Assembly: GCA_964016885.1 (NCBI GenBank)
Contig: OZ024740.1
Coordinates: 348,812,001 to 348,876,000 of the forward strand
DNA length: 64,000 nucleotides
Direction: 5' to 3'
Origin: Eledone cirrhosa
Taxonomy: Eukaryota
How positions within the stretch are numbered: position 1 is the stretch's first letter; the number at the start of each line of letters is the position of its first letter. Made by a program: the position numbers and the translations under genes. Under the pieces are notes generated by a model, which was not told the origin of the DNA, did not search any database, and saw only the letters and a list, made by a program, of their open reading frames with translations. Shown here piece after piece: positions 9,391-18,883 of the stretch.

Positions 9391-9893
9391 TATATATATA
9401 TATATATATATCTTATTACTAATTATATCTAATGTTTCTTCTCTCTTCATAATGTACTTTATAGCTCTGATACTGGTTCAGTCTAATCCATTCGGATTGG
9501 TTAGTCCCATTTATTCATAGAGCAACATCGGTTAAGGTTGGCACCATTAACTCAAGGATAGATGTGGATATATTCATGTATATGTATGTGTCCGCATGTA
9601 TCTGTGTGTTTCTCTATATATTGTATATATATATATATATATATATATATATATATATATATATATATAAACAATTAAGTTAAAAATGTACATCCACATA
9701 TGTATACTGAAATACTAGTATGCATATGAATACACACACGTATACATATGTAGATGTACCGAGTTTTTCACTGGTCACTTTACTGTGAGTGTCCAGCTAT
9801 TCTGTATGTAAACACACAGACAAACCGGTTTTTAGAGTCATACTGGTTTTTGAGGAAACACCTTTCCTCTATTCTCCAGAAAGCCAGACAAGG

Positions 9894-9938
9894 AATATTG
9901 AACTAGTTTCGATGTTGTTACATCTCATCAGCAATATT
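9894..9938 (-). ncRNA. Minimal type-I hammerhead ribozyme (family A, GUU site)
   Basis: Reverse complement AATATTG-CTGATGA-GATGT aaca ACATC-GAAA-CTAG-TT-CAATATT. Confidence 0.85.
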
Positions 9939-10240
9939 TACCTATCTTCCGGCCTCTCTAGAGAATCGTAAAAGCACATATCGTTATATGCTTTTTCTAT
10001 GAAAATTAGTAGTGGGCAGACTAATTTGCATAGAGCGTGAGTACGTACCAGTTCAACGGAGACGATAAAAACAAATAACGAAACGAAATTAAATTTCGTT
10101 TCGTTTGTAACTCACTTTTGTATGACTGACGCTTGTACTCACGCTCTATGCAAATTAGTCTGCCCACTACTAATTTTCATAGAAAAAGCATATAACGATA
10201 TGTGCTTTTACGATTCTCTAGAGAGGCCGGAAGATAGGTA

Positions 10241-10285
10241 AATATTGCTGATGAGATGTAACAACATCGAAACTAGTTCAATATT
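10241..10285 (+). ncRNA. Minimal type-I hammerhead ribozyme (family A, GUU site)
   Basis: AATATTG-CTGATGA-GATGT aaca ACATC-GAAA-CTAG-TT-CAATATT: 7-bp stem I, 5-bp stem II, palindromic stem III. Confidence 0.85.
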
Positions 10286-10706
10286 CCTTGTCTGGCTTTC
10301 TGGAGAATAGAGGAAAGGTGTTTCCTCAAAAACCAGTATGACTCTAAAAACCGGTTTGTCTGTGTGTTTACATACAGAATAGCTGGACACTCACAGTAAA
10401 GTGACCAGTGAAAAACTCGGTACATCTACATATGTATGCGTGTGTGTATTCATATGCATACTAGTATTTCAGTATACATATGTGGATGTACATTTTTAAC
10501 TTAATTGTTTAAGCGTCAGTCATACAAAAGTGAGTTACAAACGAAACGAAATTTAATTTCGTTTCGTTATTTGTTTTTATCGTCTCCGTTGAACCGGTAC
10601 GTACTCACGCTCTATGCAAATTAGTCTGCCCACTACTAATTTTCATAGAAAAAGCATATAACGATATGTGCTTTTACGATTCTCTAGAGAGGCCGGAAGA
10701 TAGGTA

Positions 10707-10751
10707 AATATTGCTGATGAGATGTAACAACATCGAAACTAGTTCAATATT
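10707..10751 (+). ncRNA. Minimal type-I hammerhead ribozyme (family A, GUU site)
   Basis: Same motif, +466. Confidence 0.85.
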
Positions 10752-11172
10752 CCTTGTCTGGCTTTCTGGAGAATAGAGGAAAGGTGTTTCCTCAAAAACC
10801 AGTATGACTCTAAAAACCGGTTTGTCTGTGTGTTTACATACAGAATAGCTGGACACTCACAGTAAAGTGACCAGTGAAAAACTCGGTACATCTACATATG
10901 TATACGTGTGTGTATTCATATGCATACTAGTATTTCAGTATACATATGTGGATGTACATTTTTAACTTAATTGTTTAAGCGTCAGTCATACAAAAGTGAG
11001 TTACAAACGAAACGAAATTTAATTTCGTTTCGTTATTTGTTTTTATCGTCTCCGTTGAACCGGTACGTACTCACGCTCTATGCAAATTAGTCTGCCCACT
11101 ACTAATTTTCATAGAAAAAGCATATAACGATATGTGCTTTTACGATTCTCTAGAGAGGCCGGAAGATAGGTA

Positions 11173-11217
11173 AATATTGCTGATGAGATGTAACAACATC
11201 GAAACTAGTTCAATATT
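11173..11217 (+). ncRNA. Minimal type-I hammerhead ribozyme (family A, GUU site)
   Basis: Same motif, +932. Confidence 0.85.
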
Positions 11218-11669
11218 CCTTGTCTGGCTTTCTGGAGAATAGAGGAAAGGTGTTTCCTCAAAAACCAGTATGACTCTAAAAACCGGTTTGTCTGTGTGTT
11301 TACATACAGAATAGCTGGACACTCACAGTAAAGTGACCAGTGAAAAACTCGGTACATCTACATATGTATACGTGTGTGTATTCATATGCATACTAGTATT
11401 TCAGTATACATATGTGGATGTACATTTTTAACTTAATTGTTTAAGCGTCTGTCATACAAAAGTGAGTTACAAACGAAACGAAATTTAATTTCGTTTCGTT
11501 ATTTGTTTTTATATATATATATATATATATATATATATATATATATATATATATATATATATATATATATATATATATATATATATATATATATATATAT
11601 ATATATATATATTTTAAACACCAAATGTTCCAAGTTTTTTTTTTATTTTTTTTTTTTACCTTAAAACGA

Positions 11670-16350: not shown

Positions 16351-16739
16351 TCCTCATATATATATATATATATATATATATATATATATATATATATATA
16401 TATATATATATATATATATATATATATATAAAACGAAGGAATTGTGGTAAGGAACCAGATGGACTCACCAGAGTACTCAATACTTAGGGTAGTAGAGTGG
16501 GTAATAGGAAAAAAGTATCATATTTTTTCATACATATATATATATATATATATATATATATATATATATATATAAGAAAAAAGTGGTGATATATGTATAT
16601 ATATATATATATATATATATATATATATATATATATATATATATATATATAGTAATAATAATAAATTTGAAGACTAAAATCCAAAGAGGGATCGATAAGG
16701 ATAAATATATATCAAATATATAAGAACCGAGGAGCAAAT

Positions 16740-17250
16740 ATTTATTAAAATAACAGATTAAAGTTTAAGCAAAGAATCGCTGCTTTCACCCTTAACGGGA
16801 TCTTATTTTATTTCCTAGTTAGAATTTTAGTCTACGACTTCAGTTATACCATTTACGTGGTTTTGTCTTTGCGTGCAATTGTTCTCCCCGACCCACATAT
16901 GACGTATTATCTTCGTTTTTTTCGTTCATTGCCAGAGAACGTCTCTATGCACCACCTAATAGAATATTAGTCTACGACTTCTTTTATACCATAAACATGG
17001 TTTTGTCTTTGCGTGTAATTGTTTTTTACCGCTCCAAATAATGACGTATTATATTCGTTTTTTCCCGTTCTTTGCCAGGGAACTTTTCCACAAACCAAAG
17101 TATCGTCGTCCTGTCTTCCTCCGGTTGCAACGTTTTTTGAAATATTTACTTCTGCGTTCACAGATTGACTTTGTTAGTTTCAGAAGATCCCGTTAAGGCT
17201 GAAAGCAGCGATTCTTTTCTTAAACTTTAATCTGTTATTTTAATAAATAA
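16740..17250. mobile_element. Small element with terminal inverted segments and internal direct repeat, next to (TA)n
   Basis: 16741-16804 is the inverse of 17184-17248; tagtctacgacttc repeated at ~16828 and ~16968. Confidence 0.55.
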
Positions 17251-17574
17251 ATAAATATAAATATATATATATATATATATATAAAACAAATAACGAAACG
17301 AAATTAAATTTCGTTTCGTTTGTAACTCACTTTTGTATGACTGACGCTTAAACAATTAAATTAAAAATGTACATCCACATATGTATACTGAAATACTAGT
17401 ATGCATATGAATACACACACGTGTACATATGTAGATGTACCGAGTTTTTCACTGGACACTTTACTGTGAGTGTCCAGCTATTCTGTATGTAAACACACAG
17501 ACAAACCGGTTTTTAGAGTCATACTGGTTTTCGAGGAAACACCTTTCCTCTATTCTCCAGAAAGCCAGACAAGG

Positions 17575-17619
17575 AATATTGGACTAGTTTCGATGTTGTT
17601 ACATCTCATCAGCAATATT
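17575..17619 (-). ncRNA. Minimal type-I hammerhead ribozyme (family A, GUC site)
   Basis: Reverse complement AATATTG-CTGATGA-GATGT aaca ACATC-GAAA-CTAG-TC-CAATATT. Confidence 0.9.
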
Positions 17620-18091
17620 TACCTATCTTCCGGCCTTTCTAGAGAATCGTAAAAGCACATATCGTTATATGCTTTTTCTATGAAAATTAGTAGTGGGCAG
17701 ACTAATTTGCATAGAGCGTGAGTACGTACCGGTTCAGCGGAGACGATAAAAACAAATAACGAAACGAAATTAAATTTCGTTTCGTTTGTAACTCACTTTT
17801 GTATGACTGACGCTTAAACAATTAAATTAAAAATGTACATCCACATATGTATACTGAAATACTAGTATGCATATGAATACACACACGTGTACATATGTAG
17901 ATGTACCGAGTTTTTCACTGGACACTTTACTGTGAGTGTCCAGCTATTCTGTATGTAAACACACAGACAAACCGGTTTTTAGAGTCATACTGGTTTTCGA
18001 GGAAACACCTTTCCTCTATTCTCCAGAAAGCCAGACAAGCATATAACGATATGTGCTTTTACGATTCTCTAGAAAGGCCGGAAGATAGGTA

Positions 18092-18136
18092 AATATTGCT
18101 GATGAGATGTAACAACATCGAAACTAGTCCAATATT
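18092..18136 (+). ncRNA. Minimal type-I hammerhead ribozyme (family A, GUC site)
   Basis: AATATTG-CTGATGA-GATGT aaca ACATC-GAAA-CTAG-TC-CAATATT. Confidence 0.9.
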
Positions 18137-18557
18137 CCTTGTCTGGCTTTCTGGAGAATAGAGGAAAGGTGTTTCCTCGAAAACCAGTATGACTCTAAAA
18201 ACCGGTTTGTCTGTGTGTTTACATACAGAATAGCTGGACACTCACAGTAAAGTGTCCAGTGAAAAACTCGGTACATCTACATATGTACACGTGTGTGTAT
18301 TCATATGCATACTAGTATTTCAGTATACATATGTGGATGTACATTTTTAATTTAATTGTTTAAGCGTCAGTCATACAAAAGTGAGTTACAAACGAAACGA
18401 AATTTAATTTCGTTTCGTTATTTGTTTTTATCGTCTCCGCTGAACCGGTACGTACTCACGCTCTATGCAAATTAGTCTGCCCACTACTAATTTTCATAGA
18501 AAAAGCATATAACGATATGTGCTTTTACGATTCTCTAGAAAGGCCGGAAGATAGGTA

Positions 18558-18602
18558 AATATTGCTGATGAGATGTAACAACATCGAAACTAGTCCAATA
18601 TT
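18558..18602 (+). ncRNA. Minimal type-I hammerhead ribozyme (family A, GUC site)
   Basis: Same motif, +466. Confidence 0.9.
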
Positions 18603-18883
18603 CCTTGTCTGGCTTTCTGGAGAATAGAGGAAAGGTGTTTCCTCGAAAACCAGTATGACTCTAAAAACCGGTTTGTCTGTGTGTTTACATACAGAATAGC
18701 TGGACACTCACAGTAAAGTGTCCAGTGAAAAACTCGGTACATCTACATATGTACACGTGTGTGTATTCATATGCATACTAGTATTTCAGTATACATATGT
18801 GGAAGTACATTTTTAATTTAATTATATATATATATATATATATATATATATATATATATATATATATATATATATATATATAT

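Follow-up and report, generated by a model that had tools for sequence, protein, structure and literature searches.

The analyzed window is a stretch of 64,000 nt of the Eledone cirrhosa genome (contig OZ024740.1, positions 348,812,001 to 348,876,000) that holds two arrays of a 466-bp unit with a GC content of 36%. Neither array contains an open reading frame (ORF) of at least 100 aa, and (TA)n borders both of them on all four sides: at 9615–9667 and 11511–11612 around array 1, and at 17243–17282 (AT-rich or (TA)n) and 18824–18885 around array 2. An earlier reading of this DNA from its letters alone (the sequence-only reading) had described a non-coding unit bounded by (TA)n, which is borne out, and two tandem arrays; two arrays are indeed present, but they are not plain head-to-tail series, each being a head-to-head inversion of two 5'-truncated arms, one on the minus and one on the plus strand. 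The inverted arm of array 1 (9668–10134, minus strand) is 467 nt long, one full turn of the unit, and has its outer 3' end at a short site (unit position 399); the direct arm (10135–11510, plus strand) comprises 2.95 units, is 5'-truncated at unit position 23 and has its outer 3' end at a long site (466). In array 2, the inverted arm of 1.6 units (17283–18039, minus strand) ends outward at the long site (465) and is truncated at unit position 175, and the direct arm of 1.7 units (18037–18823, plus strand) ends at the short site (394), with a 3-nt overlap at the junction. Between the two sites, which are putative start sites of a reverse transcriptase (RT), lies a "tail" of ~67–72 nt (11444–11510 on the plus strand of array 1) with a 13-bp hairpin at 11472–11500.

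Seven complete hammerhead ribozyme (HHR) motifs of type I had been claimed for the window, and their parts were found in each case (7-bp stem I, CUGAUGA, 5-bp stem II, GAAA and a CUAG loop). Those of array 1 all have the cleavage triplet GUU and lie at 9878–9949 (minus strand, predicted cut after 9901) and, in three consecutive units of the plus strand, at 10230–10301, 10696–10767 and 11162–11233 (predicted cuts after 10278, 10744 and 11210). Those of array 2 all have GUC and lie at 17559–17630 (minus strand, predicted cut after 17582) and, in two consecutive plus-strand units, at 18081–18152 and 18547–18618 (predicted cuts after 18129 and 18595); the minus strand thus carries two of the seven. 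The check with Infernal and Rfam that the sequence-only reading had proposed matched all of them to Hammerhead_HH9 with 36.5–38.9 bits (E 1e-5 to 2.5e-6), short of the gathering score of 52. Rfam microRNA matches in the window are noise from (TA)n hairpins. The motifs had also been called minimal, and this holds for stem III alone, since stem I runs on past a 2-nt bulge into a further helix of 6–7 bp; the HHR of the window differs in this from the minimal PLE type. Stems I and II covary: both sides change at 6 of the 12 pairs, and 96% of cells pair compared with 29–50% when the stems are slid. The monomer, from cut to cut, has a closed predicted fold of -163.2 kcal/mol (z -11.7) in which stem I joins the ends; the monomeric HHR core is not formed in the predicted minimum-energy fold of the junction. 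The Rfam score, this junction fold and the GUU of array 1 count against the interpretation of the arrays given below.

The two arrays are copies of a very abundant non-coding mobile element. The HHR core pattern has 23,367 exact matches in the genome (reversed control, 0), which comprise the window's own family (family A) plus sister families, and a 20-mer of family A has 9,795, equivalent to ~9,800 monomers dispersed over many contigs. Young copies are 99–100% identical. A dispersed, high-copy element of short, GC-poor tandem units that lacks ORFs and LTRs and has a complete type I HHR in at least two consecutive units fits the animal non-LTR retrozymes described in coral, mussel and axolotl (Cervera and de la Pena, 2020; PMC7229834) and in a vertebrate survey (10.64898/2026.07.22.740005), which likewise consist of ORF-less tandem units of GC <45% with one type I HHR each, thousands of copies and a structured monomer. 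The unit of 466 nt is longer than the 170–400 nt RNAs of the 2020 paper and falls within the 51–972 bp range of the survey. Stem III of the window, one pair plus a palindromic tetraloop, resembles that of HHR_Amex1 of the axolotl, an HHR that performs better in dimeric form, and family B shares with HHR_Amex2 a U-U mismatch at the base of stem II (PMC7229834). As a further point against the interpretation given below, just one of nine dimers of Xenopus retrozymes underwent cleavage in vitro (10.64898/2026.07.22.740005). Expression and circles were demonstrated for published animal retrozymes and are predicted for the Eledone element.

The two-armed shape recurs in 49 of 76 family-A clusters (a non-random sample, mostly best matches, with <2% of the monomers), and most clusters have (TA)n-type flanks. 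The outer ends of the 49 combine a long and a short end in 39 cases, two long ends in 2 and two short ends in none, while 8 have one irregular end; where both ends are at a site, 39 of 41 copies use one of each (p = 8e-10). These two sites lie ~70 nt apart within the unit. PLEs (Penelope-like elements) leave an inverted 5'-truncated copy with a tail at one side only (PMC8557442), and in vitro a PLE RT uses two internal start sites, both strands being cut and extended, in an insertion that proceeds without need for HHR cleavage (PMC11167929). The window arrays carry this tail footprint. Such fixed paired ends in (TA)n, together with the dispersal over many contigs, the compensatory changes in the HHR and the A-to-G scars described below, speak against satellite DNA whose local amplification proceeded by unequal crossing-over or fold-back and whose HHR is a relic. 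This explanation would account for the mosaic higher-order patterns of long arrays, and local amplification from a pLTR is favored by the 2026 preprint (10.64898/2026.07.22.740005); for the arrays as a whole we regard it as extremely improbable.

It is highly probable that each array represents a single insertion of an animal non-LTR retrozyme, HHR-bearing and without an ORF, with two head-to-head arms in (TA)n, likely copied from RNA by the RT and GIY-YIG nuclease of a Neptune-type PLE. The unit, the arms, the fixed ends ~70 nt apart, the copy number, the HHR covariation and the matching Neptune spacing are the directly observed parts of this reading. Two Neptune-type families of the same genome, with a CX4CX2C linker, have ends at two sites 68–70 nt apart and lie in (TA)n, so that the ~70-nt tail of the retrozyme equals theirs, compared with the 30–40 bp described for PLEs. 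The footprint is also like that of Neptune-clade PLEs (PMC8557442) and of Anolis Poseidon PAc (PMC11167929), with an inverted 5'-truncated copy, a tail at one end, microsatellite or AT-rich targets, internal RT start sites and an HHR in the repeat; unlike those elements, the one described here has no ORF. Non-autonomous Chlamys elements such as MRC1 are also ORF-less PLE dependants with multicopy head-to-tail insertions, but canonical HHRs are absent from most Chlamys, and the non-autonomous members have 3' sequence in common with the helper (PMC8557442). Of the 10,597 first-look GIY-YIG candidates of the family search, 50 loci were examined, and none held an autonomous PLE with sequence in common with the unit, so that the helper is assigned by footprint alone; in this search one locus, L165, was judged from BLAST coordinates only, and 30-nt matches at L174, L178 and L183 (E 0.34) were treated as chance. 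Copying of these repeats by Neptune-type PLEs of the same genome appears likely from the matching ends. The sequence-only reading was right in proposing a non-autonomous, retrozyme-like, PLE-mobilized family, as the insertion footprint and the lack of an ORF-joined unit in the clusters indicate, but its choice of the nearby PLE proteins as mobilizers fares less well. The ORF at 21025–22149 bears at its 3' end a different HHR-like motif with no likeness to the unit visible by eye, and the Neptune-type PLEs elsewhere fit the footprint better. The PLE ORFs of the window gave no Pfam match.

The units might instead belong, as pLTRs, to an autonomous PLE with an ORF-bearing master that is unsampled or lost, the arrays being its 5'-truncated products. 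The footprint is identical to that of autonomous PLEs, the PLE loci examined are a small part of the genome's total, and many Xenopus retrozymes match pLTRs, 24 of 57 families having matched known TEs, nearly all of them PLEs (10.64898/2026.07.22.740005). On the other hand, another unit precedes every full unit, with up to 31 in a row (L222+L223) and a succession over >19 kb in C602; the flanks and ORF lists of the 76 clusters (<2% of monomers) show no RT-GIY-YIG ORF adjoining a unit; and frames starting in the HHR core close within ~20 codons. Units that lie close to ORFs at L181 and L182 are separate insertions in (TA)n. A pLTR origin is thus improbable, and the element is best placed among the animal non-LTR retrozymes already known, as a new member for which the evidence of PLE mobilization is unusually direct. 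Mobilization by PLEs had been proposed from co-occurrence or pLTR homology (PMC7229834; 10.64898/2026.07.22.740005), and here it can be read from the insertion ends, with Neptune as candidate helper clade and two predicted start sites; these, with the 99–100% identity of young copies, make an in vitro test direct. The words "cephalopod", "octopus" and "inverted" are absent from the main text of the 2020 paper (PMC7229834), and neither it nor the survey (10.64898/2026.07.22.740005), in their available text, reports insertions that have two arms and paired start sites, or genomic copies with editing. Literature searches, with subscription papers, Repbase and Dfam outside their reach, found no cephalopod retrozyme and no edited genomic retrozyme copies.

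In the life cycle that we propose for this retrozyme, transcripts are predicted to be cut by the HHR into monomers of 466 nt, which a host ligase would close into circles; a dimer formed through the palindromic stem III would probably cut better. The helper would nick both strands of the (TA)n tract, and each of the two target 3' ends would prime at its own internal site of the RNA, the two sites flanking the tail hairpin; each cDNA would cover between a fraction of a unit and 31 units, and the two truncated cDNAs would join head to head. Within an insertion, the two arms show a median difference of 0.71%, compared with 1.98% to other loci, but are as close to each other as to the nearest other copy in only 15 of 37 insertions, and a single template molecule common to both arms is therefore unproven. 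Only one of 98 5' truncations falls within unit positions 160–175, where the HHR cuts, versus 3.4 expected, which argues against linear cut monomers as the usual template ends; such monomers were ruled out as templates by this lack of clustering and by the mosaic arrays. The template would rather exceed a single cut monomer in length and would be an uncut multimer or a circle. Rolling-circle reverse transcription of a monomeric circle, the model of the 2020 paper and of the sequence-only reading, is consistent with the closed predicted fold, the exact head-to-tail joints, the avoidance of the cut by truncations and a family-B insertion (L137) of 16 pieces identical save one change. However, the long family-A arrays L221, L222+L223, L043 and L101 are mosaics of monomer haplotypes with a period of 2–3, markers of L221 stay linked across the cut site and the two arms of L101 terminate with three haplotypes in identical order. 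Such mosaics are impossible from one monomer circle and could arise from multimeric RNA, multimeric circles with switching or later turnover at the DNA level, so the monomeric circle is a possible but somewhat doubtful template. The ~466-nt linear or circular RNAs of the sequence-only reading are accordingly only in part sustained: truncations do not cluster at the cut, four of five long arrays are mosaic, and a multimeric RNA explains the insertions no less well than a monomer circle. Satellite-type amplification may still act on long arrays after insertion.

Some monomers carry dense A-to-G changes. At L043, each of six monomers has 21–25 A>G among 25–28 changes, and one monomer at L114 has 61 of 64, its A>G sites showing a 5' U/A preference (odds ratio 5.4, p = 2e-5). 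The edited stretch of L043 is covered by short-read contigs in X2 (depth 53) and X3 (depth 58) and uncovered in X1 and X8; the edited body of L114 is uncovered in the X1, X2, X4 and X23 contigs, gaps that carry no weight, and one X1 contig matches 91 nt across its junction and edited short arm with zero differences. The hyperedited pattern is rare (7 matches at 2 loci versus 9,795 unedited), the mirror T>C pattern of antisense editing has no match, and none of the family-B copies examined is hyperedited. These changes are likely traces of ADAR-type RNA editing, judging from their pattern in the DNA, and such hypermutation points to an RNA intermediate; ADAR would have edited A to I in some template RNA ahead of copying. 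The scars indicate that RNA editing occasionally enters inherited DNA, and mosaic arrays and edited monomers together serve as barcodes that separate rolling-circle from multimer copying in the retrozyme life cycle.

A similar asymmetry is seen in the (TA)n tracts. Over 2 kb of flank at L114, G replaces ~35% of A on one strand, and in 36 of 59 long TA tracts the substitutions affect a single strand; many such tracts are partly periodic, so slippage explains some of them. The order of C-only and G-only blocks, taken as a test for two arms, gave a null result (10 versus 9), and the blocks do not mirror one another. A broader and rather unlikely reading would join these observations: a dimeric Neptune RT would prime the two strands of the target on one multimeric RNA, at sites that are obligately different, and arrays would thus arise at insertion; edited RNA would enter inherited DNA; and kilobase (TA)n tracts would in part be retro-copied, ADAR-edited (UA)n RNA, the PLE machinery building its own target microsatellites.

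The unit also holds an octamer, ATGCAAAT, which lies in a predicted hairpin at 11080–11087 on the plus strand, 130 nt upstream of the HHR cut, and is common to sister families B and C. Newt satellite 2 has an snRNA-type promoter with an octamer.

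Family A, to which the 466-bp unit of the window belongs (reference u1-466, window 11045-11510, 36% GC), is a real, young and abundant retrozyme family. The sequence-only reading took its two insertions for tandem repeats of 466 bp; the unit size stands, but neither is a plain tandem since both consist of a minus arm and a plus arm. In array 1 the minus arm (9668-10134) joins the plus arm (10135-11510) head to head, and array 2 comprises a minus arm at 17283-18039 and a plus arm at 18037-18823. All outer ends are 3' ends running into (TA)n, and in each array one lies at u465-466 (the long site) and the other at u394-399 (the short site), the stretch between the two sites being the tail. 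The unit is non-coding as proposed (no ORF of at least 100 aa in either array), and the seven hammerhead ribozyme (HHR) motifs are confirmed, with five in plus and two in minus orientation. Exact genome matches number 9,795 for a family-A 20-mer and 23,367 for the HHR core common to A and its sister families (reversed controls, 0 in both cases). At the sequence level, family A fits the definition of animal non-LTR retrozymes in PMC7229834 and 10.64898/2026.07.22.740005 and on that basis is a further member of this known kind of element. A literature search, with supplements, Repbase and Dfam outside its scope, found neither a cephalopod retrozyme nor edited genomic retrozyme copies.

The two-armed shape was found in 49 of 76 family-A clusters, a set made up mostly of best hits and a position-ordered series from the start of contig C1; the remaining 27 have a single arm, are cropped at a locus edge or are only fragments. 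The two-armed clusters pair a long with a short end in 39 cases, two long ends in 2 and two short ends in none, and 8 have one irregular end, one of these being half of a 31-unit array split over loci L222/L223 that as a whole is short plus long. For the 41 clusters with both ends at a site, this pairing has p = 8e-10 against free choice. One long-plus-long insertion (L107) has flanks that themselves form inverted repeats, which suggests that it arose by DNA fold-back rather than two-site priming.

It has been proposed that Penelope-like elements (PLEs) mobilise retrozymes (PMC7229834; 10.64898/2026.07.22.740005), and an inverted 5'-truncated copy with a tail at one end only is the described PLE signature (PMC8557442). 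Working in vitro, one PLE protein cleaves AT-rich DNA on both strands, extends each of them and initiates reverse transcription from two internal sites bounding the tail, its HHR being dispensable for insertion (PMC11167929). On this footprint, PLE-type mobilisation of family A, already suggested by the sequence-only reading, is well supported and highly probable; the nearby PLE ORF at 21025-22149 shares the (TA)n end, but its 3' repeat differs from the unit. The genome holds 10,597 GIY-YIG candidates, of which 50 loci showed no terminal repeat (pLTR) common to unit and PLE; none of the 76 clusters has an adjoining PLE ORF in the flanks and ORF lists examined. The helper can therefore be placed at clade level only, from its footprint. 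Two families carrying the CX4CX2C linker that marks Neptune (PMC8557442) also make two-armed copies, and their ends in (TA)n fall at two sites with a separation of 68-70 nt, which matches family A's tail of 67-72 nt; Neptune is thus the likely helper clade. Neptune-type families at L171, L174 and L173 reach ORF lengths of ~1,000 aa and carry HHR-like motifs in degenerate form.

Regarding the RNA template, 5' truncation points are not clustered at the HHR cut (1 of 98 at u160-175 vs 3.4 expected), so the usual template ends are not those of linear cut monomers. The 16 pieces of a family-B insertion (L137) are identical except for one change, as expected if the template were a uniform multimer or a monomer circle. 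In four long family-A arrays, monomer haplotypes form a mosaic with a period of 2-3; markers are linked across the cut site in L221, and the same three-haplotype order recurs at the ends of both arms of L101. These patterns speak for a multimeric template, or for turnover at the DNA level once the array was inserted, rather than for one monomer circle. Between the arms of an insertion the median divergence is 0.71%, against 1.98% relative to other loci; all 37 insertions lie below that median, but only 15 of the 37 have arms that match each other as closely as the nearest other copy does. Copying from a monomer circle is possible but less likely than not.

All seven motifs match Rfam Hammerhead_HH9, but their scores of 36.5-38.9 bits fall short of the gathering score (52). 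In stem I, 7 bp are followed by a 2-nt bulge and then another helix; fold prediction gives stems I and II a high local formation probability, the monomeric core differs from the lowest-energy fold, and in the model two copies can pair through the palindromic stem III. Across 14 sequences (subfamilies A1 and A2, B and C), both partners have changed in 6 of 12 stem pairs, and 96% of alignment cells pair vs 29-50% in slid controls; a covariation shuffle test is inflated by the relatedness of these sequences. The predicted fold of the cut-to-cut monomer (-163.2 kcal/mol, z -11.7 vs 100 shuffles) has its two ends held together by the extended stem I. The triplet at the predicted cut is GUU in array 1, GUC in array 2 and GUA in family B. 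Self-cleavage is a prediction; Xenopus retrozyme dimers showed cleavage in 1 of 9 (10.64898/2026.07.22.740005).

Two loci carry apparent A-to-G editing scars. Each of six monomers in the L043 array has 21-25 A-to-G among 25-28 changes on the HHR strand, and the L114 monomer, retrieved with an edited query and thus not a random draw, has 61 of 64, with a 5' U or A preferred (odds ratio 5.4, p 2e-5). The loci have 14 edited sites in common at positions 200-324 (p 0.012), which the site preference of ADAR would produce. A search pattern that requires three edits recovered only 7 monomers in the genome, all at these loci, and its antisense mirror 0. The L043 stretch occurs in short-read contigs of runs X2 and X3 (depth 53 and 58; 3 and 1 other letters) and is uncovered in X1 and X8; an X1 contig matches the edited L114 junction over 91 nt, the L114 body being uncovered. 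These contigs argue against assembly error, not as an independent population, since the runs, of unrecorded kind, are possibly the assembly's own sample.

The (TA)n flanking L114 has ~35% A-to-G on the strand of the monomer edits over ~2 kb. Among 74 TA-type tracts of at least 300 nt, 59 have at least 20 G or C, nearly of one type only in 36. Some one-strand tracts are periodic, fitting slippage, and others aperiodic; the order of C-only and G-only blocks (10 vs 9) and mirror tests on these blocks gave no further support. Long tracts with one-strand A>G only (9-36%, often aperiodic) lie at L114 (G000:C28:60887001-60894000), L103, L115, L118, L122, L129, L130, L135, L173 and L178. They might represent edited (UA)n RNA copied back into DNA, products of slippage, or an artefact of assembly.

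Sister families B (474 bp, with its own ends at 417 and 474) and C (B/C loci L039:1-1404, L137, L035:7926-8450 and L182:899-1483) have two-armed insertions and the HHR type and octamer of A, and A and B pieces are joined within one insertion at L038. All three families keep the octamer ATGCAAAT (window 11080-11087 and equivalents), located upstream of the HHR cut at a distance of ~130 nt; it may act as a promoter element, with a parallel in newt satellite 2, or be merely a hairpin arm. Family A also forms an array of >19 kb (G000:C602:40790-60000) and a two-armed 31-unit array, 99-100% identical to the window unit (C1:5738093-5752744).

Elsewhere in the window, two-armed 3'-end remnants of Neptune-type PLEs (42161-42409, 51483-51952, 61076-61545, 26313-27138, 47533-47910) account for some Rfam MIR530 hits. 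Another PLE family, with RT and C-terminal nuclease, broken frames and a (TA)n end, lies at 21025-22962 and 2439-3368, the former also bearing an HHR-like motif of its own near 22680-22715. Yet another HHR-like motif (23213-23253, minus strand), whose stem II is longer and whose stem III loop is of UAUGUA type, is dispersed and recurs at L035, L038, L045 and L047. Tandem copies of a non-LTR element with RT, C-terminal restriction-like nuclease and (AAT)n end (30855-35199, 37322-40483; in one copy the open frame spans 1,053 aa) resemble R4/Dong-type elements. Three identical interleukin-17 ORFs (42893-43456, 52436-52999, 62029-62592; Pfam IL17 for the first copy) sit in a ~9.5-kb segmental repeat.
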